64,000 nt of DNA from positions 41,409 through 105,408 of the forward strand of contig JAIOPL010000015.1 of NCBI GenBank assembly GCA_021413925.1, given 5' to 3'. The DNA comes from Verrucomicrobiota bacterium (GTDB taxonomy: Bacteria > Verrucomicrobiota > Verrucomicrobiia > Chthoniobacterales > UBA6821). Below are positions 2,567-36,251 of the stretch, in pieces (within the stretch, counting starts at the first letter, position 1; every line of letters starts with the position of its first letter). The notes under the pieces are model-generated. The model had not been told where the DNA came from. It ran no database searches and worked only from the letters and a program-made list of their open reading frames with translations. The position numbers were made by a program, and so were the translations under genes.

Positions 2567-2588
2567 GGGGTCCTCTACATTTCAGAAA

Positions 2589-2903: not shown

Positions 2904-2997
2904 GCCACCCGTCATGACCCCCTGCAAGCCATTCTCCCGCAGCCGTAACGAATGCCTAGCAACGGCTGGGAAAGCAATCGCGGGGAACGAGGATGCT

Positions 2998-3237: not shown

Positions 3238-3255
3238 CAGCGAGGAGAGGGGAGC

Positions 3256-3471: not shown

Positions 3472-3563
3472 AGGAGATTTCTTAACCCTCTTTCCATACA
3501 ACAGCAACCACTCTTCTTTCCCATCCCTCCTCTGCGTCTTTGCGCGAGTTAAATGTTTTCATC

Positions 3564-4967: not shown

Positions 4968-4970
4968 GTC

Positions 4971-5393
4971 ATGGATGGAGAAAATATGAAAATAACGGTT
5001 AAGCTAGATAATAGTGAAACCGTAATGGTCATACTAAGTGCAAGTGATAGTGAGTTAGGTTATTCAGTAGTTGCTAAAACAGAAAAAGGTGAGGAAATAG
5101 GAAAATTTGAATTCAGGCATATAGAAGACGAGCGACATGAATATTTAATGTTATGCTGCATGTTTATTGAAGGATGGGCAGGTGTATTTAAGCGAAAGGG
5201 AATCGGACGAAATATTCTGATTTATGCTAAGGAATTTTATGGTCTCCCAATTGTAGTTGCGCCAAATGATGGAATTAGAAGGGAAGATGGCTGTCATTTA
5301 ACGGGGGATGGCCCAATATTTGTAAACCAAATGATTCGGGAAAGAATTATTTCTCAAGATTTCTCTCCAGAAAGTGATTGCGATGAATGGTAA
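4971..5393 (+). CDS. Small AT-rich cytoplasmic protein, possible minimal GNAT fold
   Basis: 140 aa with no signal peptide. FKRKGIGRNIL resembles the GNAT motif A (R/Q-x-x-G-x-G/A). Stop at 5391..5393 is 4 nt before the ATG of the caspase-like gene. GC content is much lower than in the flanks. Confidence 0.45.
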   Translation: MDGENMKITVKLDNSETVMVILSASDSELGYSVVAKTEKGEEIGKFEFRHIEDERHEYLMLCCMFIEGWAGVFKRKGIGRNILIYAKEFYGLPIVVAPNDGIRREDGCHLTGDGPIFVNQMIRERIISQDFSPESDCDEW

Positions 5394-5397
5394 TAAT

Positions 5398-8300
5398 ATG
5401 AATAAAAACAGTTTATTAATAATTATTGCACTCTTTTTATTGCTAGGCCAGAGCCTAGCGAAAGTCCCCACCCAAGAACAGTGCCGGCAAGAGGCTTCAG
5501 CTATAGTTGATCAGTTGATCAAAACTGAAGTAGCGCGCGATATTGATTCCCAAATCAAACTCTTTGCGCCTGAGGTAACTCAAGATGGAAAGTCCATTAA
5601 GAGAGAACAACTTAGAAAAGAAAATCTATCCTACTACAAACGATGGCCAGTGGCCCAGTGGTTACTACTAAAGCCAGTGGAGGTAAAGCAACTGACTCCG
5701 GATTCATTTGAGGTCATCTATGAAGCGTCCTTTCGGGTTGAAAGTCCAGAGCGGGGAAAGTGGAGCGGGGGAACATTGAAATCCACATTAAAAATAGTTA
5801 AAATTGATGAAAGATACCTGATTCAAGGAACAGAGGATCATGTTTTAGGAAACATCAAGGGCGAATTACAGAGAGATCCGTCCGATCGTGAATTTAAAAC
5901 TACATCCTCAAAGGAAAATCTAAAGCATGATCCAATCGTGGTTTACCAATCAGGTCTCTGTAGAGAACCAACTTTTGCGAAGAATGACTCAAATGGAATA
6001 TATGAGATTTTTGGGAATCAAAATGAATGGTGTCTTGTAGATAAAGTCAGCGGTGTTATAATAGGTAAAGATATAGCAAAAGGTAATGGATATATCGATG
6101 CGAGATTTAGTCCAGATTCTAAAAAACTACTTTTATTTTTATCGGGCCATCATGGCGGCCCCAATTTCTTCGAGCTGCTGGATGTAGATTCTTTCGAGAC
6201 GGATGATTACCTAATGCCTTGTCCTAATATAGAGAATAGGAAAGACTCAAAAGTATTTGGTGAATACAAACTGTCACTTTCAAGTCAAGACGATGGCAAT
6301 TATAGAAGTGTTGCTAAATGGGAAAAGGGAGAACATAAGCTAGGGGTAGATGTTTTCCAGGATGGCAGAAGATCTGCATTAGGAATTACTAATTACCCTA
6401 TAAACACCACTCCCTCTGAACAAAAAATTATTCTATTAGATAGTGTAAAGTATTTAGTAAGCCTTAAAAACAAAAAGACATCTGTTTTTAATGTAGATAA
6501 TATCAGCAAGGTTTTAAGTGTCGATGGAGATGAATTTCGGGTTGACGGAACTACAAAATCAATATCTATACGAAATGGTAGTAGCATAGTCTGTTACAGT
6601 CTGATTACTGGTAATGTCCTGTGGAAAACGGAAATAGAAACATCACCAGAAACTTTTGATTTTCATGATCAATTCGTATTCATAGTAGAAAACAACCAAG
6701 TGTCTTGTCTGAATGTCGTCACGGGGTACAAAGTTTGGATAAAAAAATTAGATGTGGATTCAAACGAAAAAATAAATCAAGTAAAAGTATCTCCTAATAA
6801 AAAGTACATTGTATTATCTTCTGGCGGCTATTTCGGTCATATTTACGTATTAAATTGTCAATCAGGAGATATGCTTTGGAAAGCAGACTCATCAGGAATT
6901 AATGCTTTTAGCAATGATAGTACGCTGCTTTCCTATTCTGTACATGCGGGCTTTACCGATGTTATTATTAAAGTTATTAAGACGTCCGAATGGAAGCCTA
7001 GTGCTGAATATTCTGAAGAAGTAAATGTTCCAGCATATGGTTTCGGTGATATGGTTTTTTCTGATAATTCTAAATCGATTGTTTTCGCGCTTACTGCTTT
7101 TGATAAAATTAGAATTGCTAATCCCAAAATCGGCAATTCTGCTGCATCAAGGTTTCAGGATAAATCTAAATATATTATCAATGATCCTGGTTACTATAAA
7201 AATATCATTTATGACGAAAAATCTAGGCTTCTTGCTGCGTCAGACTCCGAAGGATTCTCAAATATATGGAGCCTATCCTCTGGGCATCTAACTGCGCGAA
7301 TTCTTATAGATGATTTTGCTAATCCATTAAGTTTAACTCCCGAAGGTTATTATCTTACATTAGGAAGTGCTCATAAATGGGTTGGGTTTAGGTTTGATGG
7401 AAGAGGTTATCCTCTCGAGCAATTCGACCTGCGCCTGAATCGTCCTGACATTGTTCTGGAACGATTGGGAGCGCCGAAGGAAGCGGTAGAAACCGCAAAA
7501 TCCCTTCGCGAAAAGCGTCTGAAGCGCATGGGGGTAACTGAGGAAATGCTCAAGCCGGACTTCCATCTCCCTGAGCTTCAGATCGTGGGTGAGGTTCCTG
7601 CCACGACTCCCAAGGATCAGCTCGACCTCCAGATCAAGGCGACGGACGACAAGTATCCCCTTGATCGCCTCCGGGTCTACGTGAACAACGTCCCGGTGAA
7701 TGGCCGCGATGGGGAGCTCCTCCGTGACCAGAAAACGCAATCCCTAGAAAAGACCATCCCGATCAAGCTGGCCGCTGGTCGCAACAAGATCCAGGTCTCC
7801 GTCCTCAACAGCGCCGGTGCGGAATCCCTCTATGCCAATGCCGAGGTGAACTGCACGGCAGAGCGACCGAAGCCCAAGCTCTACGCCGTGGCTCTAGGCG
7901 TCTCCCAGTATGACCGCCCCGAGTGGTGCCTGAAATACGCCGCCAAGGACGCAACTGACCTGATCGGGAAGCTTAAAGCCAAGGCCGGTTCCTCCTACAG
8001 CGAGGTGAAGCCCATGCTCCTGACCGATAAAGAGGTGACCAAGGAAAGCGCCACCAAGATCAAGGAGTTCCTCTCCGGGGCTACCATCGACGATACGGTC
8101 CTGATCTTTATGGCTGGTCACGGCCTCCTAGATGACAAATACGACTACTACTTCGGCACCACCGACATCGATCCGGCCAGACCGTCCGATCGAGGTATGA
8201 CCTACGAGGCGATCGACAACATCCTCGCCTAAGTACCCTCCCTCAAAAAGGCCCTCCTGATGGACACCTGCCACGCCGGAGAACTGGATGACGATGAGAA

Positions 8301-8763
8301 GAAGGAACTCGCCGCATCCGACGGAGCGGCAACCCCCTCCGCAATCCCAGCTTCAGACACCAACTCATCTCCAATGGCAGGCAAAGTCGCCATGCGATCC
8401 ATCGGCACCCGTGGAATGCAGGTGAAAGCCGTGCAAGGAGCCAAAGGGAAGAGCGACTGGTACGAGAAGCTCCAGGACATGTTCGTCGATCTTCGCAGGG
8501 GGAGCGGAGCCACCGTGATCAGCTCCTCTCAAGGAGCCGAGTACGCCTTCGAGAGCAGCGAGCAGTCCAACGGCCTCTTCACCTACTCCCTCATGGAAGC
8601 CCTTGATGGCAAAGCAACACCGAACAAGGAGGGCCAGATCACCATCAGCAGCATCGGCGACTACGTCAAAAAACGCGTCCAGGACCTCACCAAGGGCAAG
8701 CAAAACCCCAACCTCCGAGGAGTGAATTTAGAAGAGGACTTCGCCCTCAGCTCAACGAAATGA
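5398..8763 (+). pseudogene. Exported beta-propeller-like / caspase-like (peptidase C14) protein interrupted by an in-frame TAA at 8230..8232
   Basis: Signal peptide MNKNSLLIIIALFLLLGQSLA, then PQQ/WD40-like repeats (GNVLWKTE, GYKVWIKK, GDMLWKAD), then the constant module. Track ORFs 5374..8232 and 8260..8763 are in the same frame (8260-5374=2886). The intact paralogues read ...ILAEVPSLKK... whereas this copy reads ...ILA*VPSLKK..., i.e. gcc TAA gta versus gcc GAA gta. Confidence 0.7.
7408..8763 (+). repeat. Constant caspase effector module, copy 1 (of 3)
   Basis: Starts at codons YPLEQFDLRLNRPDIVL. Shares long identical nucleotide runs with 16021.. and 22487.. (for example gggtctacgtgaacaacgtccc). 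Confidence 0.9.
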
Positions 8764-11700
8764 AAATTATGAAGAATCCCGTCCTTCTCCTTGGATGTCT
8801 GTTTTTAATCCTTCCGATCGAGAGAGTTCTGTCGCAACAGCCGGATAATGCCGCGGTAACGCGGATAGAAAGCATGATAGCTAGCGGAAAGAATTCAGAG
8901 GCAGAGTCAGCCGCCTCTGAGTTAGAAAAGAAGGGTGCTACTGCGGGTTCCATCAAGGAGCAGGCAGATGCGGCCTACTGTCTTGGGTTGATCGCTTTCC
9001 TGTCAGGGAACAACGACCAAAAAGCCGATCAGGAGCTCAGAAAGGCAATGGCTTTTTATGAGAAATCTTCTACTGCAGATAATGTCGGTGGTTGGAAATG
9101 CCTCTATGTGATGGTGAAACTCTATTTCGACCACAGGAAACAGGACCCTAATGCGTGGACGGCGATCGCCAAAACTCTTTCCCAAGTTGAATCGCTTGCA
9201 AGAAAGCAGTTGTTGGGTGCCTCCCAAGGCGCCAATGGGCCGGCAATCTATTCTGCCATGCTGAGTAATCCAGAACTCATGGCCTTGGATAAGGTCATGC
9301 ATGAACGCCTTGATCAGATCAAGCAGCAGGGTAATGGAGGGGCTGAGCTGATAGACCAGCAGCAGGAGTGGGAAAAGGGTCGGGATCGTGATCTTGAACT
9401 GACCGGATTTGGCAGAAATATGAATTTGCCTAGATCAACCTACTTTAGCGAAGGAATGCAAAAAATCAGTCAGGCGAGGGACGAGACAACCACGCGACTG
9501 AAGACTTCACTCACCAATCGCATCAATGTTCTGTCAAAAATGATTGATGAGTCTCATCTACATTCCGATGCCACGGCAAGCAACACGATTGAAGGCCATG
9601 ATAGCGAGGGGTTCCGGTGGGCTTATGAGTTTCTGTCTGATCAAGGAAGGGGAAAGCCCTCGCTTCTCGACAGCACCACGGCGACCGTCGTCTTTCAGAG
9701 TCCAGAGTGGATCGTTGAAGCCTCCGAGGAGGCAGGGAATGTAGGAAATATGAAGACGGATTTGTGTTTCTATGATGCCAGAACATTGAACCTGATCGCC
9801 ACGGCACGAATTCCTAACAAAGTCATCAGTGTGGGAAGAGTAGGAAATGGGAGTTCTTTTTATGCCGTTACCATTACTCCCAGCAAATATCGCTATGATG
9901 ATGCACCACTTGCTCTGTGTCTGATTGATCCTAAAGCAAAACAGATAGATCGAGTCCGACTGGTTAAAGAAAACTACTGGTTGGCCCTCAATAACCCAAT
10001 TCATATCGAGGCCTCTGGAAATACCGTCAATGTACTGGTTAATCCAAATCCATCGAATAGTGAAGGTAAGGAGGGAGGTTACTCTGTCAGTACCATCTCC
10101 AATCCATACTTCAAAAATATCTCGATCTCTCTCCAACCGGGGGCAGCCGATTACTATCGCAGGAACCCCATCAAGGAGCTTTTCCCAAGGGGGTACTCCA
10201 AGGGCGAGGCTTTGATTCCTTCGGAGAAAGATTTCGATCAACAAGCCAGAAATGAGTCAGCATCGCTTCGGGCATTGGGAATTAAGCCTTCTGGAAATCT
10301 GGATCAGCGCGACGTAGGCGCTAAGGCCGGTGCGGCGCTGCTTTCGAATAATCCTTTGTCGGGAGTGCATATCGTCAGCGCTGACCAGAATGGGACGATT
10401 CAGGACATCAACCTCGATTCACTGACGGCGAAAAGCCTCAAGCTTTCCTCCTCTCGAATCGAGTCACCGGGAATCTTCAGCGACGGGTGTATTCATGGGG
10501 TCAATTCAGGAAATCTCGTTCTTGCGAAAGGAACCACTAACCTGACCATCCCCTTTACCAAAGCCATGGTTCTATTCAATGAATCTGCCGCTTATGCGAT
10601 TCCGCAGGTGCCAGAACAAGTATGGTGGATGAGGCGAGTCGTTTCTGATCCAGAACATTTATCGCTTACCAGCATTACTTCCGCAGGGAAGACAAATCAG
10701 GTGCAAGTTCCCGGCAATCATTCACGGAAAGACGGTGAGATTGCTATCTACCCTGAACAAAACATTTTCTACAGCTACAGAAATGAAGACGGAACAAATG
10801 TCTTCACAAAATACTCAATGAAAAATGGGTCTCAAATCGACGAGCCAATCAGGACGGAGACCGGGAAATCAGGAACAGTCTCTTGTATCCGCGAGGGAAT
10901 CTGTGCAACTGGCCATCGTCTCGTTTGCGTCGTTACGGATTTCTCCACTCAAGGGGCGGGATATTCGATTTTCGCTCGATGTGGTGCTTCAAAACCGCTC
11001 GTGGAGCTAGTTCGTGGCCTTTCCGAGCTAGCTGATCCTCTTGCAATGCGTCCGAAGGGTGATGGGACGATCCAACTTCTCTACTCGTGTGCCGGAGTCA
11101 CCAAGGTTGAAGAGCATGCCCCGGATGGAAAGCTGAAGGAGACGCTTGCCGAATGGCCTTCGCCTCCTCAGGAGGGAAAGCCTCTTCTGCTTAGCGAAAG
11201 GAACCTAGTCTTTATACCCAAGGCAGGAGGGTATGATGCCTATCGAATCTTTGGCGAAGGCAAACCGGAGAAGGCGTTCGAGATCTACTTCCGGGGTAGC
11301 AGTGACTATGTAATCCTTCTTCCCAACGGTTTCTATGCAGGATCTCCAGGATGTGAGCGTCTCATCACTCTGCAGGCTGGGGATGGGAAAGTTGATGCTT
11401 CCGCACTTGCCCCATGGCGAAACAGGCCCGCAGAAGTTATCAAAGCACTCGGAGGCGACCCAAAGAATGCGGACATCCTCGCAAAGGTTACAGAACGCTG
11501 GCTCAAGAGAGCGAAATTCGACCCCTCTCAGCCAGAGCCCAAGGCCTCAGAGATCCCGAAGGTGGACGTCAACCAGATGCCGCCCTTATGGGCACAGGGA
11601 GCGGGAATAACCTTCCCGATCGAGGTGACCGCTGGTGCATCGTCTCTGAAAGAAGTGACCGTCCGGGTGAATGGGATCCCTCAGCAGGCGATCAGCGGAT

Positions 11701-13490
11701 CGGCGCTGAAGATCCCTGTAGGGGGCAAGGGGACCGTTCAGGGTTCCGTGACTCTGGCCCAAGGGCAGAACTGGATCGAGGTGACGGCCACCGATGAGAA
11801 GGGCCGAGTCAGTAATCAAGCCCACTTCCGGAGCATCCTGTCCGAGGCAACGGAAAAGCCAAAACGCTATATCGTGGCGATGGGATGCTCGGTATATGAT
11901 CGACCTGAGCTAAAACTTGAATTTGCGGCTAAGGATGCCGGTGATGTGCTCAAGACCTTCAGTGAGGCTGGGGGAAGAGATTGCAAGACCCTTCTTCTGA
12001 CCAATAACGATGTCAGCCCTGAGGCGCTTGAGAAGATCAAGGCCTTCGTGGGGGAGAGCAAGGAGAGTGACGAGGTGATCCTATTCTGCGCCGGTCACGG
12101 CCTACTCGACGAACATCTCGACTACGTCTACGCGGGACACCAGATCGATCCGGAACATCCGGGTGACACAGGCATCCATCTCGACGCCCTCCTCGATGCC
12201 ATCAAGGCGGGCAAGTCCCTTAAGCGTCTCGTGCTCATGGACACCTGCCAGTCGGGAAGCGTGGGGGAAAAGGAGGAGATGAAGCTGGCATCGGCCTCTA
12301 CAGAACTTCCCCACGGAGTCCGTGCGGTGAAGTCTCGAGCGCTTAAGGTGGTCGGAGTCTCTCCGATGACGGGAGGTGACCAACAACGATTCATCGAGGA
12401 AATGTTCCTCCTGCCGGGCCAGCATCGCGGGATCAATATCATCGGTGCCTCCGGAGGGGCGGAATATGCCATGGAGTCCGACAAGTGGAACAACGGCGTC
12501 TTCACCTCCGCCCTTATCGAGGCCCTGAGGGATCAGAAGGCCGACATGGATCACCGGGGTCGTATCTCCGTGAGCGATCTGAAGACTTATCTGGGTCAGA
12601 GGGTATCGGAGCTTACCGGAGGTGCTCAGAAACCTAGCGTGGTGGCCTTCGAGCAGGATCAGGACTTCGATCTCCTGGGCGATATGCCTCCAATTCCCGA
12701 ATCTGTGAAAAATAGCTCGGGGGCTACTACCCCAACGGAGGCGACACCACCTGCAGCGCCATCACCCGTAGCCAGTGAATCAGGTTCAACGACTCCTCCC
12801 AATCTGGGTCCCCAGTTTGTGAACTCGCTGGGGCAGCGGTTCGTCCCGATTCCCGGTACGCCAACCTATTTCTGCATCTGGAGTACTCGGGTGAGTGATT
12901 ACGGGCAGTTTGTGAAAGAGACGGAAAGGGCTTGGAAACCGGCTGGGTTCCCGCAGAAGCCTGATCACCCTGCCGTGAGGATCAATTACAACGACGCCAC
13001 GGCATTCTGCGATTGGCTGACTAAGAGCGAGCACGTGACAGGAAAGCTCCCGAGCAACGTAGAGTATCGGCTCCCGAAGGATCTGGAATGGAGTGCCGCT
13101 GCCGGGATCACGGATAAAGAGATGGATGGTCCTCCAGCATGGCGAAGTGGAGGAATCCCAAACTGCTATGCGTGGGGATCATCATGGCCTCCACCGAAGG
13201 GATCGGGGAACTACGATCCGAAGATGAAAACGGATTCGTTCCCAAATACTTCGCCTGTGGGAAGCTTCGCGCCTAACAGGTTTGGTCTCTTCGATATGAA
13301 CGGAAACGCCTACCAATGGACTCTCGAGGATTACGACGAAAGCGGACAAGGGTCGCAGAGAGGAGGATCCTGGGCCGATGAAGAAGAAGAGAGTATCAGC
13401 CTCTCAAATCGCTTTACTACACCCAAAGACTCTCAGGGTAAGTGCTACGGATTCCGCTGCGTCATCGCTCCAATTACTCAGAATAAATGA
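8760..13490 (+). CDS. Exported giant caspase-like protein with C-terminal FGE-sulfatase (SUMF1/CLec-fold) domain
   Basis: ATGA overlap with the upstream gene. Signal peptide MKIMKNPVLLLGCLFLILPIERVLS. Caspase core KRYIVAMGCSVYDRPELKLEFAAKDA...ILFCAGHGLLD...LVLMDTCQSGS. C-terminus RINYNDATAFCDWLT...YRLPKDLEWSAAAG...NRFGLFDMNGNAYQWTLEDY...RGGSW...GFRCV is the FGE-sulfatase signature. Confidence 0.85.
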   Translation: MKIMKNPVLLLGCLFLILPIERVLSQQPDNAAVTRIESMIASGKNSEAESAASELEKKGATAGSIKEQADAAYCLGLIAFLSGNNDQKADQELRKAMAFYEKSSTADNVGGWKCLYVMVKLYFDHRKQDPNAWTAIAKTLSQVESLARKQLLGASQGANGPAIYSAMLSNPELMALDKVMHERLDQIKQQGNGGAELIDQQQEWEKGRDRDLELTGFGRNMNLPRSTYFSEGMQKISQARDETTTRLKTSLTNRINVLSKMIDESHLHSDATASNTIEGHDSEGFRWAYEFLSDQGRGKPSLLDSTTATVVFQSPEWIVEASEEAGNVGNMKTDLCFYDARTLNLIATARIPNKVISVGRVGNGSSFYAVTITPSKYRYDDAPLALCLIDPKAKQIDRVRLVKENYWLALNNPIHIEASGNTVNVLVNPNPSNSEGKEGGYSVSTISNPYFKNISISLQPGAADYYRRNPIKELFPRGYSKGEALIPSEKDFDQQARNESASLRALGIKPSGNLDQRDVGAKAGAALLSNNPLSGVHIVSADQNGTIQDINLDSLTAKSLKLSSSRIESPGIFSDGCIHGVNSGNLVLAKGTTNLTIPFTKAMVLFNESAAYAIPQVPEQVWWMRRVVSDPEHLSLTSITSAGKTNQVQVPGNHSRKDGEIAIYPEQNIFYSYRNEDGTNVFTKYSMKNGSQIDEPIRTETGKSGTVSCIREGICATGHRLVCVVTDFSTQGAGYSIFARCGASKPLVELVRGLSELADPLAMRPKGDGTIQLLYSCAGVTKVEEHAPDGKLKETLAEWPSPPQEGKPLLLSERNLVFIPKAGGYDAYRIFGEGKPEKAFEIYFRGSSDYVILLPNGFYAGSPGCERLITLQAGDGKVDASALAPWRNRPAEVIKALGGDPKNADILAKVTERWLKRAKFDPSQPEPKASEIPKVDVNQMPPLWAQGAGITFPIEVTAGASSLKEVTVRVNGIPQQAISGSALKIPVGGKGTVQGSVTLAQGQNWIEVTATDEKGRVSNQAHFRSILSEATEKPKRYIVAMGCSVYDRPELKLEFAAKDAGDVLKTFSEAGGRDCKTLLLTNNDVSPEALEKIKAFVGESKESDEVILFCAGHGLLDEHLDYVYAGHQIDPEHPGDTGIHLDALLDAIKAGKSLKRLVLMDTCQSGSVGEKEEMKLASASTELPHGVRAVKSRALKVVGVSPMTGGDQQRFIEEMFLLPGQHRGINIIGASGGAEYAMESDKWNNGVFTSALIEALRDQKADMDHRGRISVSDLKTYLGQRVSELTGGAQKPSVVAFEQDQDFDLLGDMPPIPESVKNSSGATTPTEATPPAAPSPVASESGSTTPPNLGPQFVNSLGQRFVPIPGTPTYFCIWSTRVSDYGQFVKETERAWKPAGFPQKPDHPAVRINYNDATAFCDWLTKSEHVTGKLPSNVEYRLPKDLEWSAAAGITDKEMDGPPAWRSGGIPNCYAWGSSWPPPKGSGNYDPKMKTDSFPNTSPVGSFAPNRFGLFDMNGNAYQWTLEDYDESGQGSQRGGSWADEEEESISLSNRFTTPKDSQGKCYGFRCVIAPITQNK

Positions 13491-13585
13491 AAAAGGGCGT
13501 CCAGGACCTCACCAAGGGCAAACAAAACCCCAACCTCCAAGGCGGGAACCTCGAAGAAGACTTCACGCTCAGCGCAACGAAATGA
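13490..13585 (+). pseudogene. Orphan 3'-end remnant of a caspase-module gene
   Basis: Reads KGVQDLTKGKQNPNLQGGNLEEDFTLSATK* in its own frame. Homologous to 8668..8763 (KRVQDLTKGKQNPNLRGVNLEEDFALSSTK*). It ends in the same acgaaATGAaaa stop/start junction. Confidence 0.75.
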
Positions 13586-16500: not shown

Positions 16501-18024
16501 GTAGCCCTGGGAGTCTCCCAGTATGACCGCCCCGAGTGGTGCCTGAAATACGCTGCCAAGGATGCCACCGACCTGATTGGCAAGCTCAAGGCCAAGTCCG
16601 GATCCAGCTACAGCGAGGTGAAGCCCCTGCTCCTGACTGATAAAGAGGTCACCAAGGAAAGCGCCGCCAAGATCAAGGAGTTCCTCTCCGGGGCTACCAT
16701 CGACGATACGGTCCTCATCTTCATGGCCGGCCACGGACTGCTGGATGACAAGTACGACTACTACTTCGGCACGACCGACATCGATCCCGCCAAGCCATCT
16801 GAGAGAGGTATGCCCTACGAGGCGATCGACACCATCCTTGCCGAAGTACCCTCCCTCAAAAAGGCCCTCCTCATGGATACCTGCCATGCTGGAGAACTCG
16901 ACGAAGACGAGAAGAAGGATCTCGCCGCATCAGATGGATCGGCAACACCCGCCGCGATCCCTGCTGCAGACACCAACTCATCTCCAATGGCTGGCAAGGT
17001 CGCCATGCGAGCCATCGGCACCCGAGGGATGAGTGTAAAGGCGCTCCAAGGAGCTAAGGGGAAGAGCGACTGGTACGAGAAGCTCCAGGACATGTTTGTC
17101 GATCTGCGTAGAGGCAGCGGAGCCACGGTGATCTCCTCATCCCAGGGAGCTGAATACGCCTTCGAGAGTAGCGAGCAGTCCAACGGCCTCTTCACCTACT
17201 CGCTCATGGAGGCCCTCGACGGGAAAGCCACCCCGAACAAGGATGGCCAGATCACCATCAGCAGCATCGGCGACTACGTCAAAAAACGCGTCCAAGACCT
17301 CACCAAAGGCAAACAGAACCCCAACCTCCGTGGTGTGAACCTAGAAGAAGACTTCAGTTTGGGCAAAGCCGAGAACTTTTTGCCATCTTCATCCACTTCC
17401 TCATTATCTGATGAGACTTCAAAGCTGTCCGAAGAGATGCTGCCAGACCCTTCGGCTCTTCCCAAAGCGGGTTCCTTAGAAACTGATAGCTCGTTTTCTC
17501 AGTCTGCTACAGGTCACAATAAGGTCCTAGAATTCGACGAGGCTCTGAGCCGTGCCGATGCAGGTGATGCCTACGCACAGGGGGTCCTCTCGATTTACTA
17601 TGGTCTTGGATACAAGACCGAGAAGGAACTTGCCAAGGCCGTCGAGTATGCCTCGAAGTCTGCGGGCCAGAATAATCCGCTAGGTCAGTATCAGCTTGGC
17701 GTCCTGACCGCAGGAGGGGAGGGGGTTGAGAAAGATCCGGAGAAAGGCAAGTCGCTCAAGGTAGAATCCATCGAGGGACTGAACACAATGCCCGATGACC
17801 CCTACGCCCTGGCGTCGCTGGGAGCGATGGCGCTTCGAGGAGAGGGAGTGGCTAAAGACATTAAGATGGCCGCCAAGCTCTACAGAAGTTCAGCAGATCT
17901 CGGATATGCACCCGCCCAGATCCTCTATTCGATGATGCTTGCGAGGGGGGTGGGAGTCCCCCCAGATGCTTCTGCCTCACGGAAATACGCCTCCATGGCC
18001 GAGGCGCAGAACTATCAACCATAG
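13582..18024 (+). CDS. Exported WD40-like / caspase-like protein with C-terminal Sel1 repeats
   Basis: True start is the ATG at 13582 (MKKRLISLILGVTLVAGIGI signal peptide). The track start at 13378 reads through the remnant and is rejected. The N-terminal ~810 aa are extremely AT-rich and N/K/I-rich, with WD40-like VIRIWSLETGKLIRT. The constant module starts at 16021. The C-terminal AGDAYAQGVLSIYYGLGY...PLGQYQLGVL...ALASLGAMALRGEGVAKD...YAPAQILYSMMLARGVGV are Sel1-like repeats. Confidence 0.85.
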   Translation: MKKRLISLILGVTLVAGIGITKLDLQAADAQPANKNEEKNGANKKIISVDDEPICYRAAFGEVKPPVDETEDNSNKNKKQGYELIPSCDVISGKYKKPEGAIVEIGPINAKIIRKGSKEYQKIMDGTLGKTVIGKEDINDNSIEVVPQLIDSHKIISGYTDNKNKIVVTGIYGNSKVIRIWSLETGKLIRTISLMAGMDSQAENYDFIRKQNIARVYPYGDGKSAVIVRYQERAGGLSNALECTVTDLNTGNPTVEARGSSFRFDDDISDVQKKAGFMNVDFDKNTKLLVSVGGDMIKYDILKDRSELEKRLGKFLGSAYLDEVKIDPQKIGFDGGISLVAVDIKGSFNASVLARSSREKYLVLNVDLRNKQVISTQNINTYISENKNISSNIYSFINKHNALFSDGVQTLIKDGNTPLIISNKNKKSLLNIAGETSDYNCIVSNKNESLVVLYNDKKSDIMIIDQKSLIVKKINLPEGYTHKYVFFNKSCTQFYLATFDSVSGDTSFYSFNDKYEISKTAQYQLQSGNDCIELEANVSSSGRFFSCSLDNGREVSSYIVDSKSNSLLLHNNGPVCFMNNKDVAICAEKNILSEYDCANSSREISFNVIKDKVYNVAFFPLDEFHIKNEKYKTLDLQKSRNSDFNNVDWSPFRIDASPNGAAWSVSYKYHKYKPDDINNRPFLILNYKNKFYFDELFQDKLNVFISDDGSICRASHDVITPNMHWRWVSPYRNQEENPFKYNNITWLSDINKYYHLSSLGMITKIDFNQLKPKVDYSIFPSNNGNVVFVLKDKSYMLLGKNNSTVAFADKLKSYPLEQFDLRLNRPDIVLDRLGAPKEAVEAAKSLREKRLKRMGVTEEMLKPDFHLPELQIVGDVPATTSKDLLDLQIKATDDKYPLDRLRVYVNNVPVNGRDGELLRDQKTQSFEKTIPIKLAAGRNKIQLSVLNSAGAESLYANAEVNCTAERPKPMLYAVALGVSQYDRPEWCLKYAAKDATDLIGKLKAKSGSSYSEVKPLLLTDKEVTKESAAKIKEFLSGATIDDTVLIFMAGHGLLDDKYDYYFGTTDIDPAKPSERGMPYEAIDTILAEVPSLKKALLMDTCHAGELDEDEKKDLAASDGSATPAAIPAADTNSSPMAGKVAMRAIGTRGMSVKALQGAKGKSDWYEKLQDMFVDLRRGSGATVISSSQGAEYAFESSEQSNGLFTYSLMEALDGKATPNKDGQITISSIGDYVKKRVQDLTKGKQNPNLRGVNLEEDFSLGKAENFLPSSSTSSLSDETSKLSEEMLPDPSALPKAGSLETDSSFSQSATGHNKVLEFDEALSRADAGDAYAQGVLSIYYGLGYKTEKELAKAVEYASKSAGQNNPLGQYQLGVLTAGGEGVEKDPEKGKSLKVESIEGLNTMPDDPYALASLGAMALRGEGVAKDIKMAAKLYRSSADLGYAPAQILYSMMLARGVGVPPDASASRKYASMAEAQNYQP
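16021..17355 (+). repeat. Constant caspase effector module, copy 2 (of 3)
   Basis: I counted 15 amino-acid substitutions by eye over the 274 residues aligned to copy 1 upstream of its stop. The catalytic motifs FMAGHGLLD and LLMDTCHAGE are intact. Confidence 0.9.
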
Positions 18025-18063
18025 TCAGACAGAAAAAACTCTAACCCCATACCCCTAAAACCC

Positions 18064-18702
18064 ATGAAAACGACGATCACCAAATCCCTACTACTCGCCG
18101 CCCTTATGGGAGGCTTGAATACTCATACCCTCCGCGCCGATGAGACCGCCGATCTGATGCAGACAATCCTGCAGGCCTCCCCAACAGAGAGGGCCAAGGC
18201 ACAAAAGATGGTATCTTCCTCGCCACGTAAATCTTCAGGATCCAAGAAGGCTACGGTTTCTAATTCTTCAATGGTGCCAAACCTAGGTATTCCCGAGAGC
18301 CAGCTCTTAGAGGTGAACTCAAAGTTCCCCAAGGACTTTGTAGGGAAATACGTTTATGGCCCTGTCAGTTTTAAATTAATTAGACAGGAGGGAAATGATG
18401 TCTGCATAGGGTTTACTGCCAAAGGATACCGTATGTTCGATCTCTACACTCGGGATCCTCAAGTCATTCAAGCCTTCAGTAGGTGTGGTTGGGGCGCCAA
18501 GTTTACAATTCCGAAAGATTGCCCTCTACGTGTTTTAACGAAAAATCTTATGACTTATGTGGTGAGATTACCATTTGATCAAGACACTACCACTCATTCA
18601 CTAGGAGAAATCTTTCAACAGGATGGCAGGGATATGCAGAATATTCTTCAAGATACTGCGAATCGCGTTCGTAGTGACATGAATGGAATCCCCAATCAGT
18701 AA
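18064..18702 (+). CDS. Exported hypothetical protein
   Basis: Signal peptide MKTTITKSLLLAALMGGLNTHTLRA. No family recognised. Confidence 0.55.
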   Translation: MKTTITKSLLLAALMGGLNTHTLRADETADLMQTILQASPTERAKAQKMVSSSPRKSSGSKKATVSNSSMVPNLGIPESQLLEVNSKFPKDFVGKYVYGPVSFKLIRQEGNDVCIGFTAKGYRMFDLYTRDPQVIQAFSRCGWGAKFTIPKDCPLRVLTKNLMTYVVRLPFDQDTTTHSLGEIFQQDGRDMQNILQDTANRVRSDMNGIPNQ

Positions 18703-18722
18703 AAAGCAGGCAATTCTCATCA

Positions 18723-19943
18723 ATGAAAACTCACCAATCCATCATCCTTGCCCTTGTTGCCGCTACAGCACTGGGATTCACATCAATACACGCCGCCCCA
18801 GTCACCGCTGAGGGGCGCACCGCTGGGGACTCGACCGCCGCCCGTGAACAAGCTCTCACCGATGCCCTTCGTGAGGCTGTGCGCCTCGGGGCCGGGGTGA
18901 ATATCGCCAGCCAGAGCCAGGCCAGCAACTTCGCCCTCGATTATGACAGGGTCTTTGCTGCCGCATTCGGCTACGTGAAGAGTTATAAGGTGATCGAGTC
19001 CGGCATGGGCAAGGACGGGATCTACCATGTGAAGGTGGAGGCAGAGGTCTCTCCCGGCGATCCGAACATGAACAACACCATGGCCCTGAAGCAACTCGTG
19101 GCCCTGAAGGGCTCTCCCCGTATCGCCCTAGACATCCAGGAGAACATCACAGGCGTCCCTCCGAACTCCGGCTACGCCCAGGCATGGTTCGAGGAGGCGG
19201 CCAAGGACCTCCAGCTGAATATCGTCGATGTGGGCATGGCCCGTAATCAGGAGATGAAGCTCTCCCGCCGCGACGAGGCGCTTGGGAATGCGAACTCCGC
19301 GAACTTCCGCAACAAGGACATCACCCAGAAGGCCGACTTCATCATCCAGGGCAAGGTGACCGGCCGCTACGAGGGCCAGCAGAGCATGTACGGGGGGAAC
19401 CCCCAGCACGTCTTCGGAATGAGCGCCGACCTCCGGGCCGTCCGCCCTGAGACCGGCGAGGTGGTTGCCTCCGCCACCATCCATCCTAACAACAATCTCG
19501 ACAGCGACCAAGGCTCCCCCGAGATGGCCGCCAAAGACATTCTCTTCAAGCTCCTCACCGGCCGCGAGTCCAAGGGCCAACCAGGAGCCATCGGCCTCTT
19601 CCGCAAGATCTTCGCCCGCTGGTCCTCCGAGCTCGACCTAGGCCGCATGGTCCGCGTCGAGATCGTGAAGATCGACCAGCCCACCCTCACCGCGATGGAG
19701 GAGAAGTTGAAGGCCGACCCCCACATCAGCGGCGTCTGGCAGAGGGAGTTCGACGCCCAGGCCAGCACCTTCCTCGACCTTGAGACGCGCTTAAACTCTG
19801 CCGAGCTGACCAAATCTGTGACCGACGCCTCAGGAGGAGCCTACGGCATCGACCACGGAACGGAGAACTACCTCCTCTTCGTGAAGGGCGGCTCCGGATC
19901 AGCCGAGAAGAAAGGCTTCTTCGGGAAAATGTTCGGGAATTGA
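18723..19943 (+). CDS. Exported protein with N-terminal LPP20-like module
   Basis: Signal peptide MKTHQSIILALVAATALGFTSIHA. AREQALTDALREAVRLGAGVNIASQSQ resembles the LPP20/FlgO-type motif also seen in 1553..2566. Confidence 0.6.
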   Translation: MKTHQSIILALVAATALGFTSIHAAPVTAEGRTAGDSTAAREQALTDALREAVRLGAGVNIASQSQASNFALDYDRVFAAAFGYVKSYKVIESGMGKDGIYHVKVEAEVSPGDPNMNNTMALKQLVALKGSPRIALDIQENITGVPPNSGYAQAWFEEAAKDLQLNIVDVGMARNQEMKLSRRDEALGNANSANFRNKDITQKADFIIQGKVTGRYEGQQSMYGGNPQHVFGMSADLRAVRPETGEVVASATIHPNNNLDSDQGSPEMAAKDILFKLLTGRESKGQPGAIGLFRKIFARWSSELDLGRMVRVEIVKIDQPTLTAMEEKLKADPHISGVWQREFDAQASTFLDLETRLNSAELTKSVTDASGGAYGIDHGTENYLLFVKGGSGSAEKKGFFGKMFGN

Positions 19944-19999
19944 GGGAATAGGGGGGGTAGCCACAAGATGCACAAGAGACACAAAACATAATTAAAAAC

Positions 20000-20356
20000 A
20001 TGAACGATTCAATTTTCCCTGATTTTATTGAGAAAAGTTACATCGATGTTTCCATTCCCTTAAAAATTCCTGGTGTCAAAACGGAATTCCATTTAGGCGA
20101 AGGTAGTCCACTTGGTAAGGGAATATTGGTTTTTAATACCCGAGTTACTTATCAGTTCATTAGTGCAAAAAAAGAATCAGAAACACAGACAGAAGTTATT
20201 CTGAAAAGCAATGAACTCGGAAAACTAAAATCTAAAGATGAAACTTTTACGGTAGTTGGTAGAAATGTTCATGAGAGAGCTAGAGATCTTTGTTCGCAGA
20301 TAAGAAAAATACATGGAGATGATAGCATGATCTCCACGCGAACTATAATGAACTAG
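20000..20356 (+). CDS. Small AT-rich cytoplasmic hypothetical protein
   Basis: 118 aa with no signal peptide. Ends 12 nt upstream of the caspase-like gene 20369. Low GC content. Confidence 0.4.
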   Translation: MNDSIFPDFIEKSYIDVSIPLKIPGVKTEFHLGEGSPLGKGILVFNTRVTYQFISAKKESETQTEVILKSNELGKLKSKDETFTVVGRNVHERARDLCSQIRKIHGDDSMISTRTIMN

Positions 20357-20368
20357 TCAATAGTACTA

Positions 20369-23300
20369 ATGATAAAAAGATATTTCAATATCGGATTATT
20401 TATAATAATATTCTTTGTTAATTTTGCCACCGCCCAAGTCCCTACCCAAGAGCAATGCCAGCAGGCCGATGCCCAGCTGAATCAGGTCTATCAGCAGCTC
20501 AGGGGGACTCTGAGTACGGATCAGAAACAGCAGTTGAAGCTAGCCCAGAGGGATTGGATCAAGCAGAGGGATGCATTTGTTGCTGCTAATCCGGGTAATC
20601 CTCAAGGAGCGCTCTATCAAGCAACGATGCAGAGGGCACAACAACTAGGATTAATTCTCGGAAAGACGCCACAAAATGGAATGCCCTCGTCAGCGGAGAG
20701 CATTTCCAAGATGCCACTCGATATTCGAATCGATGAGAAAGCGGTTTATCCGACTCCACAGGTCAATGATCAGAAATGGATAATAAGTACCACTTCCTCT
20801 GATAATGAAAGCCTGATTGCAGTAGCTCATCCAGAACTGGTGAAAATCTGGACAAAAAATTATGAATCGCTCGTAAGAAGTATCAATTGCAGAGCCGATG
20901 CGCTTAGAATTATTCCAGGAACGCATATTCTTCTAACCATTGGAAAACCTTTGGATGCTGAAAATACCACCACGGGCACAGAGATCAATGCAATGTGTCC
21001 CGTTGCGACATACTGGAACATTGAGGATGGATCCAAGTTGGCGAGTTTTACCCTCGTGTGTCCAAAAGGGGTAGATGTTCCCTATATTACGGGAGATTGC
21101 CATCACGTTATCTTTTGCAATAATGAAAGAACGGACTTGGATCGTGTGACCTTCTACGAAACCAAGTTGCCCTTGGTAGACCTTGAAGATCGTTCCTTAA
21201 AATCCTCCGGAGATATCCGTTTTGCTGACCCTCAGAAAAAGTGGGGAGACATATCAATTAATGTGGTGGGAAATCACGATAAGATTAAAAGCCGATTCCC
21301 GGAAATAGACGGTTCTCTCGATAAAAGTGGAAGAATTAGTAGTGATCTCATTAATGAATCCGCAAAAAATCTACGCAATTCTGGAGAGATTCTTATAGAA
21401 AATCTCTCGATCAATCAGGATGGGACAAAATTCTGCATCATGGGAAAGGGGCTCGTTCGTATTGTGGAATTCGAAATTGGAGTAGCAAAAGAAATCAAAA
21501 TTCCCGATCAATGGATTGCTATTAGTGGTGCCTTTTCTTCTGATGGAAGTCATCTTGCTGTGCTGGCATCTCCAGCAGACGCGGGACAACAGCAAGAGGG
21601 AAACATCGTCTTCAAGGGATTCGTTATCGATCTCAACAATCAGACGGTGCTATTTGAGAGTACAATTCCAGCGGGAATTGTTCCCGCTGTGTGTTCAGGC
21701 AAACCTGAAATCCAATGGATCAGAGATAAAATATATATCTCCGATGGTGCAATCTTTGATTCGAAATTCTCACTCCAACAGCAAATCAAGGGGCTTTTTC
21801 TACCAACTTCCCCCTTGAAATCAGAGGTTCTTGTTAAAGCGGTCGAAGCTGGCAAGACGTCACCCCGCGGAAAGCCAACGGTCTTATCACTTGCGCTCTA
21901 CGACCTCAATAATCTTGAGTCTGCTTCAGATTTGAAGCTGAAAGATTCAGAAAATGGTGATGGTGCATTGCCTTTTTACGGAGATCCCACATGCCCAAAC
22001 CTGTCTCCATTTGATATCTCGCCGAATTGCGACGCGATCATCAAGTCTTGGAAGTATTGGAGGGGTGGCGGAGGGCTTTGTTTTGCGAATTCCGCAATCA
22101 ACCAGTCTTTTGAGAACCTGCTATCTGGCAGGATGCCAACATTTGCCTCTTTTCTTCCAAACGGAAATATTCTGTGTGTTGAATTGACCGAAAAAGGTAG
22201 TGAAACACAGATTGTCATTATAGACCCAACTCAACCTCAAAAAGCATTATCAGTTCTCAAAACGCCGATTATCTTTTCATTAAAGATATCTCCTGATCGA
22301 AAGTCATTTTACGGGATTCAGAAGAGCGGATTCGTGGTTCGATATGAGATCCGTGATAATGCTGTGCTGCCCTGCGCGGAGTACCTATCAAACAGTCGTG
22401 ACTCTTTGGTAATTACTCCAGAATTCATTTATCTTTCGCATGGCAACCCCAACAATCTCCTTCGTTTCACCAAAAAAGCAGAGTCCTACCCACTTGAGCA
22501 ATTCGATCTTCGCCTGAACCGCCCCGACATCGTTTTAGAGCGATTGGGGGCTCCGAAGGAGGCCATCGAGACGGCTAAATCCCTCCGCGACAAACGCCTG
22601 AAGCGCATGGGAGTCACCGAGGAAATGCTGAAGCCTGACTTCCATCTCCCTGAGCTCCAAGTCGTGGGCGAGGTACCTGCGACAACTGCTAAGGTTCAGC
22701 TTGATCTCCAGATCAAGGCCACCGATGACAAGTATCCCCTCGATCGTCTGCGGGTCTACGTGAACAACGTCCCTGTGAATGGCCGTGACGGGGAACTCCT
22801 CCGTGATCAGAAGACCCAGACCTTAGAGAAAACCATCCCGATCAAGCTTGCCTCTGGCCGCAATAAGATCCAGGTCTCCGTCCTCAACAGCGCCGGTGCG
22901 GAATCCCTCTATGCCAATGCCGAGTTGAACTGCACGGCTGAACGTCCCAAGCCCAAGCTCTACGCCGTGTCCCTCGGAGTCTCCCAGTACGACCGCCCCG
23001 AGTGGTGCCTCAAGTACGCTGCCAAGGACGCCACTGACCTGATCAACAAGCTCAAGGAGAAGGCCAGCACCTCCTACTCAGAGGTGAAGCCCCTGCTTCT
23101 CACGGACAAGGAGGTCACCAAGGATAGCGTCGCCAAGATCAAGGAGTTCCTCTCGGGGGCAACCATTGATGACACCGTTCTGATCTTCATGGCGGGCCAC
23201 GGCCTCCTCGATGACAAATACGACTACTACTTCGGCACTACTGACATCGACCCGGCCAAGCCATCAGAGCGTGGGATGCCCTACGAGGCGATCGACAACA

Positions 23301-23842
23301 TCCTCGCTGAGGTTCCATCGCTCAAGAAAGCCCTCCTCATGGATACCTGCCACGCCGGAGAACTGGATGACGATGAGAAGAAGGAACTCGCCGCATCCGA
23401 CGGAGCGGCAACCCCCTCCGCAATCCCAGCTTCAGACACCAACTCATCTCCAATGGCTGGCAAAGTCGCCATGCGTTCCATCGGCACACGTGGGATGAGC
23501 GTAAAGGCCGTGGAAGGAGCCAAGGGCAAGAGCGACTGGTACGAGAAGCTCCAGGATATGTTCGTCGATCTTCGCAGGGGAAGCGGAGCCACGGTCATCT
23601 CCTCCTCACAGGGAGCGGAATACGCCTTCGAGAGTAGTGAACAATCCAACGGCCTCTTCACCTACGCCCTCATGGAAGCCCTTGATGGCAAAGCCACCCC
23701 CAACAAAGAGGGCCAAATCAACATCAGCAGCATCGGAGACTACGTCAAAAAACGCGTCCAAGACCTCACCAAGGGAAAACAAAACCCCAACCTCCGAGGA
23801 GTAAATCTAGAAGAAGACTTTGTTCTGGGAACAGCCAAGTGA
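20369..23842 (+). CDS. Exported DUF1311(LprI)-like / WD40-like / caspase-like protein
   Basis: Signal peptide MIKRYFNIGLFIIIFFVNFATA. QCQQADAQLNQVYQQLRG...LKLAQRDWIKQRDAF matches the DUF1311 pattern. A repeat-rich middle region is followed by the intact constant module from 22487, carrying FMAGHGLLD and LLMDTCHAGE. Confidence 0.85.
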   Translation: MIKRYFNIGLFIIIFFVNFATAQVPTQEQCQQADAQLNQVYQQLRGTLSTDQKQQLKLAQRDWIKQRDAFVAANPGNPQGALYQATMQRAQQLGLILGKTPQNGMPSSAESISKMPLDIRIDEKAVYPTPQVNDQKWIISTTSSDNESLIAVAHPELVKIWTKNYESLVRSINCRADALRIIPGTHILLTIGKPLDAENTTTGTEINAMCPVATYWNIEDGSKLASFTLVCPKGVDVPYITGDCHHVIFCNNERTDLDRVTFYETKLPLVDLEDRSLKSSGDIRFADPQKKWGDISINVVGNHDKIKSRFPEIDGSLDKSGRISSDLINESAKNLRNSGEILIENLSINQDGTKFCIMGKGLVRIVEFEIGVAKEIKIPDQWIAISGAFSSDGSHLAVLASPADAGQQQEGNIVFKGFVIDLNNQTVLFESTIPAGIVPAVCSGKPEIQWIRDKIYISDGAIFDSKFSLQQQIKGLFLPTSPLKSEVLVKAVEAGKTSPRGKPTVLSLALYDLNNLESASDLKLKDSENGDGALPFYGDPTCPNLSPFDISPNCDAIIKSWKYWRGGGGLCFANSAINQSFENLLSGRMPTFASFLPNGNILCVELTEKGSETQIVIIDPTQPQKALSVLKTPIIFSLKISPDRKSFYGIQKSGFVVRYEIRDNAVLPCAEYLSNSRDSLVITPEFIYLSHGNPNNLLRFTKKAESYPLEQFDLRLNRPDIVLERLGAPKEAIETAKSLRDKRLKRMGVTEEMLKPDFHLPELQVVGEVPATTAKVQLDLQIKATDDKYPLDRLRVYVNNVPVNGRDGELLRDQKTQTLEKTIPIKLASGRNKIQVSVLNSAGAESLYANAELNCTAERPKPKLYAVSLGVSQYDRPEWCLKYAAKDATDLINKLKEKASTSYSEVKPLLLTDKEVTKDSVAKIKEFLSGATIDDTVLIFMAGHGLLDDKYDYYFGTTDIDPAKPSERGMPYEAIDNILAEVPSLKKALLMDTCHAGELDDDEKKELAASDGAATPSAIPASDTNSSPMAGKVAMRSIGTRGMSVKAVEGAKGKSDWYEKLQDMFVDLRRGSGATVISSSQGAEYAFESSEQSNGLFTYALMEALDGKATPNKEGQINISSIGDYVKKRVQDLTKGKQNPNLRGVNLEEDFVLGTAK
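22487..23842 (+). repeat. Constant caspase effector module, copy 3 (of 3)
   Basis: Colinear with copies 1 and 2 from YPLEQFDLRLNRPDIVLERLG through NLRGVNLEEDF. Confidence 0.9.
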
Positions 23843-26147: not shown

Positions 26148-26170
26148 TGGCAACAAAACGATCTTCAATC

Positions 26171-36230: not shown

Positions 36231-36251
36231 GGTTATCTATGTTTGATGGGA

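Follow-up and report, generated by a model that had tools for sequence, protein, structure and literature searches.

Probable exchange of low-GC heads onto constant caspase-fold tails in a four-gene cluster of a Chthoniobacterales bacterium

We analyzed a 64,000-nt stretch of DNA from a Verrucomicrobiota bacterium of the order Chthoniobacterales (assembly GCA_021413925.1, contig JAIOPL010000015.1, positions 41,409 to 105,408), which is called the window below. Four of its genes, named genes 1 to 4 here, each combine a 5′ part (the head) with a caspase-fold protease module (the tail). We consider it probable that these genes form a cluster of Sec-exported caspase-fold proteases in which heads of low guanine-cytosine (GC) content are exchanged by recombination onto constant tails, and in which the head is the part for recognition. 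Genome and metagenome scans placed the locus in freshwater Verrucomicrobiota metagenome-assembled genomes (MAGs) labelled Chthoniobacterales or 'Spartobacteria'. The original prediction for this region described three near-identical modules, each a constant tail with a swappable head, and held that gene conversion keeps the tails homogeneous. The comparisons reported here supported the swapping of heads and led us to a different account of the tails.

Results and Discussion

The tail family and the composition of the heads

Searches for direct repeats returned one three-member family, at 7407, 16020 and 22486. The copies are the tails of gene 1 (copy 1, 7408..8763), gene 3 (copy 2, 16021..17355) and gene 4 (copy 3, 22487..23842, intact). 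These and all other features of the cluster and its flanks are on the + strand. The three segments were aligned without gaps over 1335 nt, from YPLEQFDLRLN to NLRGVNLEEDF, so that the proposed colinearity was confirmed as one block and not as a set of short motifs. Nucleotide identity was 86.7% between copies 1 and 2, 87.0% between copies 1 and 3 and 85.5% between copies 2 and 3, with 25, 25 and 35 differences, respectively, among 445 amino acids. The term near-identical therefore suits the proteins (92-94% identity) and not the DNA (85.5-87%). Smaller details of the prediction were accurate. The count of 15 substitutions in 274 aligned residues between copies 1 and 2 was exact, the 22-nt run GGGTCTACGTGAACAACGTCCC was present in all three copies, and the alternate-frame open reading frames (ORFs), which occupy the same module offsets (724 and 794) in the copies, were by-products of the repeat.

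Three close copies do exist, but they are not the whole family. Gene 2 (8760..13490) contains a complete fourth tail module at about 11421-12674, an anciently diverged copy with 32% amino acid identity. In copy 1, an in-frame TAA at 8230-8232 separates the codons of the catalytic His and Cys. The codon is GAA or GAG in the other copies and GAG in the closely related locus L012. This stop reflects either recent pseudogenisation or an error in base calling.

The heads comprise about 600-900 amino acids. They open with a signal peptide, in many cases have an LprI domain next, and continue with repeats that are probably of the beta-propeller type. They differ sharply from the tails in GC content at third codon positions (GC3). 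In genes 1, 2, 3 and 4, the head GC3 was 0.30, 0.51, 0.26 and 0.42, and the tail GC3, taken from the junction to the stop, was 0.73, 0.63, 0.66 and 0.71. Other genes in the window have a GC3 of 0.66-0.81. The change is abrupt, since GC3 steps from 0.18-0.46 to 0.48-0.76 within 100-150 nt at the junction. The overall GC content was 0.37 for the head cassette of gene 1 and 0.33 for the head of gene 3. The same contrast was seen in all of about 25 loci of close relatives (upstream GC 0.30-0.44 vs tail GC 0.52-0.59), and it was lost in some more distant relatives, such as L007. The series of head GC3 values (0.26, 0.30, 0.42, 0.51) may track the recency of exchange. The gene-2 head (8760-11390), which has the intermediate GC3 of 0.51, was about 87% identical at the nucleotide level in L002 and was largely lost at that level in L003, L004, L013 and L017.

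Evidence for head exchange among relatives

The heads of 22 distinct genes, all with tails of at least 79% identity, fell into nine families, and 204 of the 231 gene pairs had no head match of at least 150 amino acids. Genes at equivalent positions in related loci, flanked by the same neighbors, can carry heads with no detectable similarity. This was clearest in the slot of gene 4. In locus L001, the 406-amino-acid gene upstream of the slot was 92% identical to that of the window at the nucleotide level, the LprI segment 81%, the tail 84-90% (about 87%) and the AbiEii gene on the right 98-99%. Between them, the head core of about 600 amino acids had neither nucleotide nor protein similarity to the core in the window. 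Still other heads occupy this slot in L002 and L004. The core of the window itself was 27-35% identical in amino acids to heads of L002b, L006 and L024. In the slot of gene 1, which lies between a CsgG-like gene and gene 2, four different heads were found across L012, L013, L016 and L017.

Two pairs of loci gave more direct evidence. In a 9-kb comparison, the block 4956-7472 of the window, which includes the intergenic region and the whole head of gene 1, was about 99.2% identical to L012 (19 mismatches were counted over 4990-7407). The flanks were much less similar, with 91.2% identity for the upstream gene and 88.0% for the tail (Fisher p = 3e-30 and 2e-53). One break of this mosaic falls at the end of the upstream gene and the other within 65 nt of the head/tail junction, and the identity profile of the upstream gene drops from 97% to 81% toward the cassette. 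In the second pair, L015 and L016, the head core was 97-100% identical over 2.5 kb and the tail about 90%. The number of synonymous substitutions per site (dS) in this pair was 0.038 for the head and 0.39 for the tail. For both pairs together, the head dS was 0.02-0.04 and the tail dS 0.39-0.55.

Heads that are less diverged than their own tails, in two independent pairs, imply reassortment by recombination, and a faster clock of the heads cannot produce them. It seems from these alignments that heads and tails reassort by homologous recombination. Together with the positional orthologs and the nine head families, the two pairs support the swappable head that had been predicted.

The same comparison of L015 and L016 also showed that the first ~800 nt (L016 400-1220) could not be aligned despite the near-identical core. 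The heads themselves thus look like mosaics with an internal breakpoint.

An alternative is that heads have always been linked to their tails and simply evolve very fast, under diversifying or relaxed selection, while drifting to low GC. Several observations would fit. Within one head family, identity is only 24-47% where the tails share 87-94%, similarity decays with distance from the junction, and the ratio of nonsynonymous to synonymous rates (dN/dS) is higher in heads (0.21-0.41) than in tails. The dN/dS values here and below are for indel-free pairs only, with indel-containing tails and the internal stop of copy 1 left out. However, this explanation does not produce the two pairs whose heads, even at synonymous sites, are far more alike than their tails. 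It is also at odds with the nine head families, undetectable to each other by sequence similarity, that occur on tails of 79% identity or more. Head divergence was likewise decoupled from tail divergence in the database homologs P0121-P0124. P0121 combined a head identity of 38% with a tail identity of 90%, and equally diverged heads (25.5%) sat on tails of 87% identity in P0123 and of 67% in P0122. We therefore regard a mere difference in rate as unlikely.

Structure and relationships of the heads

Head cassette 1 (4956..7407) contains the intergenic or promoter region, a signal peptide, an alpha+beta N-domain and one or more WD40-type beta-propellers; the probable start of gene 1 is the ATG at 5398. 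An AlphaFold2 model of this head, of moderate confidence, placed regular four-strand blades after the alpha+beta N-domain (pLDDT, the per-residue model confidence, of about 80-90 over residues 340-640), and Foldseek matched the model to WD40 double propellers, including that of Apaf-1. Relatives of this head are few, and an exhaustive phmmer search returned only five proteins below 1e-30.

The cassette of gene 3 (13579..16020) encodes a signal peptide and an 814-amino-acid orphan head. No homolog of this head was found at E <= 1e-3 in a word-indexed search of 5.8 billion protein clusters, and no relative was found in viral contigs. Pfam and PDB searches gave only sub-threshold WD40 hints. The head is rich in Asn, Lys and Ile, and its long open frame has been kept in AT-rich DNA.

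The head of gene 4 begins with a signal peptide and an LprI domain (20369..20636, Pfam LprI), a 5′ anchor common to many heads, which is followed by the variable core (20637..22486, GC about 0.43). The LprI segment was found with 76-84% nucleotide identity in L001, L002 (two copies), L004, L005 (two copies), L013 and L018.

The heads of the window had been described as unrelated. BLASTP indeed detected no similarity among them, with two exceptions: the first ~50 amino acids matched between genes 1 and 4 (E = 2e-4), and there was a single weak match resembling a blade. Profile-profile comparison (hhalign) of the nine head families gave a slightly different picture. The LprI N-domain was common to five families with a probability above 99%, and the 30-150 residues next to the junction were weakly but recurrently similar (probability 40-75%), with nothing detected across the central ~500 residues. 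The word unrelated is therefore right for the central cores and slightly overstated for the whole heads, given the LprI domain, the pre-junction similarity and the one modelled propeller. Taking the gene-1 model, these profile similarities and the blade hints in the heads of genes 3 and 4 together, all heads are probably propeller-type modules that have diverged or been replaced beyond recognition.

We also considered whether the heads are targets of a diversity-generating retroelement. This candidate was rejected, as no reverse transcriptase domain was found among the scanned ORFs and no repeats of the template/variable (TR/VR) type were found in the window. Tandem repeats, highly similar internal repeats and inverted repeats were not found either.

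The tail as a caspase-fold protease

The 445-amino-acid tail consists of two helices, an Ig-like sandwich and a caspase domain with an AGHG...DTCHAG His/Cys dyad. All four tails exceeded the cut-off of PF00656 (Peptidase_C14; 21.4 bits), with 44.3 bits for gene 3, 47.4 for gene 4, 33.7 for gene 2 and 30.8 for the 3′ fragment of gene 1. The motifs AGHG and DTCHAG were present in all three close copies, and the corresponding motifs of gene 2 are AGHG and DTCQSG. Across 36 aligned homologs, His238, Cys288 and Asp286, the last of them two residues before the Cys, were invariant. An AlphaFold2 model of copy 3 (pLDDT 76.7) showed helices at 13-41, an Ig-like sandwich at 56-149 and a caspase fold at 157-449, with a disordered loop (306-364) at the position of the p20/p10 linkers. 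Foldseek assigned this model a probability of 1.0 to the MALT1 paracaspase, the bacterial C14 protein GSU0716, metacaspases, and caspases 3, 7 and 9, with MALT1, GSU0716 and the metacaspases among the best matches. The best hit of a profile search against PDB sequences was Arabidopsis metacaspase 4 (AtMC4; E = 1.6e-4). The tails are thus members of the Peptidase C14 family (clan CD, metacaspase-like). Similarity to distant proteins is not restricted to the protease, since the whole 445-amino-acid tail was 40-45% identical to WD40-caspase proteins of Nannocystis, Bacteroidota and Calditrichota.

An acidic residue two positions before the catalytic Cys (D-x-C) is the arrangement of metacaspases and paracaspases, which cleave after Arg or Lys. 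By this analogy, the tail proteases are predicted to cleave after Arg or Lys as well. Membership in a known defense system was rejected. PADLOC reported only a partial generic 'caspase' model, and the NCBIfam model caspase_w_EACC1 scored 85 bits, below its cut-off of 140. A phage origin of the tail was rejected because no relatives were found in the viral contigs searched.

All four genes open with a hydrophobic leader typical of Sec signal peptides, as read in the translations, and the leader of gene 2 has a possible lipobox, LLGC. In two of the genes a further domain follows the caspase module. Gene 2 ends with an FGE-sulfatase domain (Pfam; about 12927-13463), and gene 3 has a C-terminal extension with Sel1 repeats (17356..18024; Pfam Sel1, E = 2.3e-11).

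This architecture raises the possibility of exported proteins similar to polymorphic toxins, in which the C-terminal caspase is itself the toxin ('Tox-Caspase') or is a peptidase that releases the FGE-sulfatase or Sel1 ends, and the repeat-rich N-terminus is a delivery stalk. The signal peptide, the propeller or Sel1 repeats and the C-terminal caspase match the parts list of Zhang et al. 2012 (PMC3482391), and the additional domains of genes 2 and 3 are also in its favor. However, the polarity is reversed, with a constant C-terminus and a variable N-terminus. No conserved small immunity-type gene follows the tails, as gene 1 runs into gene 2 and an AbiEii gene follows gene 4. There were no silent toxin cassettes either, and the only other repeat was a tail relic of ~90 nt. 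We find such a toxin system quite unlikely.

Tail evolution

If the tails were kept alike by frequent exchange, they would be expected to resemble each other at silent sites too. This was not the case. Of the nucleotide differences among the three tails, 82% were at codon position 3, and the Nei-Gojobori estimates were 0.69-0.78 for dS, 0.032-0.043 for dN and about 0.05 for dN/dS. A high dS combined with a low dN/dS means that the tail is conserved at the protein level, by purifying selection. In a neighbor-joining tree of 25 tails, which was star-like with long terminal branches, the copies of the window were interleaved with those of other genomes. The weak pairings in this tree were with positional orthologs, namely copy 1 with L012, copy 2 with L004 and copy 3 with L001. 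The tails are thus old paralogs that purifying selection on the protein has kept constant. As a practical warning, 93% protein identity across paralogs is not by itself a sign of gene conversion.

Some conversion has nevertheless occurred. A GENECONV-like permutation test found one significant tract, between copies 1 and 3, of 113 nt and 15 polymorphic sites (p about 5e-5). It lies at 8266..8378 and is identical to 23345-23457 of copy 3. A marginal tract was found between copies 1 and 2 (p = 0.04), and none between copies 2 and 3. The significant tract begins 34 nt downstream of the TAA in copy 1, which was left unrepaired.

Relics of tails were found as well. At 13491..13581, between the stop of gene 2 and the start of gene 3, lies a ~90-nt stretch that corresponds to the last ~28 codons of the tail (84% nucleotide identity to 8659-8766). 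It forms an open 30-codon mini-ORF, MKKGVQDLTKGKQNPNLQGGNLEEDFTLSATK, whose TGA overlaps the ATG of gene 3 (ATGA), the same stop/start overlap as at the junction of genes 1 and 2. The mini-ORF may serve translational coupling. L004 has a homologous stretch too, and its match to the window extends as far as 13563. L004, from a Spartobacteria MAG, has a second 3′ relic of the tail at 8713-8937, just upstream of its gene-2 ortholog, with 225 nt about 90% identical to tail ends. The relics of the window and of L004 imply that breakpoints also fall inside tails, and have done so repeatedly.

The two tracts and the relics are what could be cited for concerted evolution, in which the paralogous tails would stay alike through frequent conversion and the heads would meanwhile diverge or undergo replacement. 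Against it, dS was high in all three pairs, the differences were spread evenly along the module, the paralogs did not cluster by genome, and a dN/dS of about 0.05 accounts for the protein identity without homogenisation. Gene conversion among the tails does occur but does not dominate, and concerted evolution as the explanation of their constancy is very improbable. This part of the original prediction was not upheld.

Mis-assembly of the repeats or of the head/tail combinations is hardly credible: the window and the comparison loci seem to be metagenome-assembled or draft sequences in which conserved tails could act as switch points for an assembler, but the copies differ at 13-15% of sites, no exact run common to two copies exceeds 113 nt and beyond that run copy 1 does not continue as copy 3, long intact ORFs cross every junction, the same architecture and GC step recur in more than 25 independent contigs from different samples, and the multi-copy layout is also present in the independent assemblies L002, L013/L023, L018 and L020/L031.

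Flanking genes and other features of the window

The left flank of the gene-1 slot is conserved and consists of envelope-lipoprotein-like genes (1553..4967, Pfam). They include an LPP20-like gene (1553..2566), an envelope-lipoprotein-like gene (2914..3552) and the gene with DUF4384 and CsgG-like domains (3540..4967), which is the one found upstream of different heads in L012, L013, L016 and L017. The left flank of the gene-4 slot (18064..19943; Pfam/NCBIfam) is formed by two exported or lipoprotein-like genes of 212 and 406 amino acids. The 406-amino-acid gene resembles FlgT_N/LipL46 and was 89-92% identical at the nucleotide level in L001, L002 and L004, where it stands upstream of different heads. 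No BLASTP similarity was found between the lipoprotein-like genes upstream of the two slots, and their paralogy was not supported. We also looked for tRNA or RNA island landmarks and found none.

To the right of the gene-4 slot is an AbiEii-family gene (24038..24847; Pfam, PADLOC). It was 98-99% identical to its counterpart in L001, compared with 84-92% for its neighbors, and no AbiEi-type partner lies directly beside it in the window. In L001, HEPN-domain genes of the RiboL-PSP / MAE_28990 type (4309-5063) are inserted between the 406-amino-acid gene and the head gene, and AbiEii and DUF6088 genes follow the tail. The HEPN, AbiEii and DUF6088 genes give the gene-4 slot a context like that of a defense island. 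In L002, a CHAT-Sel1-TPR protein (1-1477) precedes this pair of small genes, in the place taken in the window by gene 3 with its head, C14 tail and Sel1 repeats (tail and Sel1 at 16021-18024). Two different caspase-fold proteases thus occupy what looks like an equivalent position.

Farther along the window, a type I restriction-modification island lies on the − strand (33846-46849), with HsdR (36252..39647), HsdS (44115..45311) and HsdM (45308..46849). It also has large ORFs without a Pfam match (794 amino acids, 33846..36230; 1183 amino acids, 40567..44118) and DUF4145 and Hypoth_Ymh genes, and its GC content dips to 0.40-0.45. A GNAT acetyltransferase-EVE fusion (29714-31189, − strand) was found in a low-GC patch (0.39-0.44), adjoining a umuC-like translesion polymerase gene (31363..32637). 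Three YkuD (L,D-transpeptidase) paralogs, at 27750-28358, 62026-62589 and 62643-63299, have a common 300-nt repeat with 64-73% identity, and one of them adjoins a LysM protein gene (26084..27301).

Proposed explanation

Taken together, the data are consistent with the following scheme. The tail is held constant by purifying selection on the protein and not by ongoing homogenisation. The heads are low-GC, highly polymorphic cassettes with a history of their own, and recombination breakpoints lie at their borders. They would be replaced between related Chthoniobacterales lineages through homologous recombination, which could be anchored on the left by the upstream gene or the LprI segment and on the right by the tail. 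Each slot would then be polymorphic in the population, with heads and tails of different histories. The tail relics, the short conversion tract and the raised divergence beside the cassette are probably scars of such recombination. As for function, the head could act as a recognition or targeting module and the tail as a constant proteolytic effector outside the cytoplasm. Frequency-dependent selection on exposed structures, exerted for example by phages, grazers or competitors, might maintain the variation of the heads, a mechanism that has also been put forward for the replacement flexible genomic islands of aquatic microbes.

Several points weigh against this scheme. The L012 event can be read in two directions: a head may have entered diverged backgrounds, or a near-clonal background may have had both of its flanks overwritten. 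In the same comparison, 185 nt lying farther left were 99.5% identical. The comparison loci are all metagenome assemblies, in which strain mixing can blur breakpoints. In the two close pairs, the heads had a dN/dS of 0.21 and 0.41, values that point to weaker constraint than in the tails but do not exceed 1. The propeller nature of the heads of genes 3 and 4 is hinted at by sub-threshold WD-like blade matches. Finally, we infer export only from the N-terminal hydrophobic leaders, and no C-terminal anchoring signal was seen.

A bolder version is that the cluster is a germline-encoded 'receptor repertoire' outside the cytoplasm. Each head, as a variable propeller, would respond to its own foreign molecule in the periplasm or at the cell surface, such as a phage, predator or competitor protein, and activate the same caspase-type effector by induced proximity. 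The effector would cleave an envelope target, and head alleles would be traded in an arms race. This version is conceivable, although we think it doubtful. If true, it would be a bacterial counterpart of the NLR/Apaf-1 logic outside the cytoplasm, and the GC3 gap would be the sign of cassettes beyond the reach of the recombination-linked forces that make the rest of the genome GC-rich.

Comparison with known systems

NLR-like conflict systems of the STAND class, in which caspase or CHAT effectors reportedly go with hypervariable WD40/TPR sensors (an account said to come from Kaur and colleagues in 2020), are similar in combining a constant protease effector with a variable repeat sensor, and fungal HET-E/NWD proteins are a further comparison of this kind. 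Defense genes are also nearby (AbiEii, HEPN in L001 and the type I restriction-modification island). However, the signal peptides of the window genes imply a location outside the cytoplasm. Membership in this class was rejected, as Pfam and NCBIfam scans found no NTPase domain, signal peptides are present and highly similar internal repeats are absent.

Mosaic genes for exposed structures, such as the central domain of flagellin, type IV pilins and the tips of phage tail fibers, have conserved ends and a replaced variable block, often of atypical GC content. The window genes resemble them in that a conserved segment supplies both function and recombination homology while the variable block differs between strains. 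They differ in that the constant part is an enzyme, a protease, and not a domain for assembly or attachment.

Polymorphic toxins (Rhs, CDI and MafB) are likewise modular exported proteins with one constant part and one swapped by recombination, and with truncated relics nearby. Zhang et al. 2012 (PMC3482391) described forms dependent on the type II secretion system or Sec, with a signal peptide, beta-propeller, Sel1 or TPR repeats and caspase-like domains, and considered C-terminal caspases likely toxins. In the window it is the N-terminus that varies and the C-terminus that is constant, and neither immunity genes nor orphan cassette arrays are present at the locus.

The protein family itself is known. 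Asplund-Samuelsson et al. 2012 (PMC3501461) listed WD40, Sel1 and FGE-sulfatase among the five commonest partners of bacterial C14 domains, and some members had an N-terminal hydrophobic leader. The tails share with these bacterial C14 homologs, or orthocaspases, the caspase fold, the His/Cys dyad and the same partner domains. Unlike in that survey (PMC3501461), the propeller here lies at the N-terminus and has diverged to the point of being barely detectable with Pfam. The survey also describes no clustered genes with 92-94% identical tails, orphan heads, a distinct base composition of the heads or exchange between lineages.

The population process is known too. Lopez-Perez, Martin-Cuadrado & Rodriguez-Valera 2014 (PMC4033161) described replacement flexible genomic islands of aquatic prokaryotes, which are exchanged by homologous recombination and have peaks of mostly synonymous substitutions at their borders. 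As far as that account goes, the likeness is close: close relatives have unrelated content at the same locus, GC is low, recombination takes place in the flanks, and the host is aquatic and free-living. We found unrelated content at the same position in the slots of gene 4 (L001, L002, L004) and gene 1 (L012, L013, L016, L017). Divergence was raised in the tail and in the 3′ end of the upstream gene, for example with a tail of 84-90% identity beside an AbiEii gene of 99%. With regard to surface exposure, signal peptides and lipoprotein-like neighbors were present and an anchor motif was not, so that exposure is only putative here. Measured against the same account, the replaced unit in the window is a domain block within a gene and not a multi-gene cluster for glycosylation or surface structures. 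One of its anchors is the rest of the same ORF, and several paralogous slots lie side by side.

Our literature searches gave no earlier case in which cassettes are replaced at the level of domains within genes for caspase homologs, together with orphan heads and a sharp GC3 step inside the gene. It is this combination of a known protein family with a known population process that seems to be new. If the proposed explanation is true, the process of replacement islands can act within a gene, on a single domain block, with the rest of the gene as the recombination anchor, and the GC3 step inside single ORFs (0.26 to 0.73) offers a test case for the AT-richness of frequently replaced regions. It would also give a lead on the abundant but functionally unexplained bacterial caspase homologs with repeat domains: with a recognition half that is strongly diversified in the population and a protease half that is very tightly constrained, the variable task might be target recognition.

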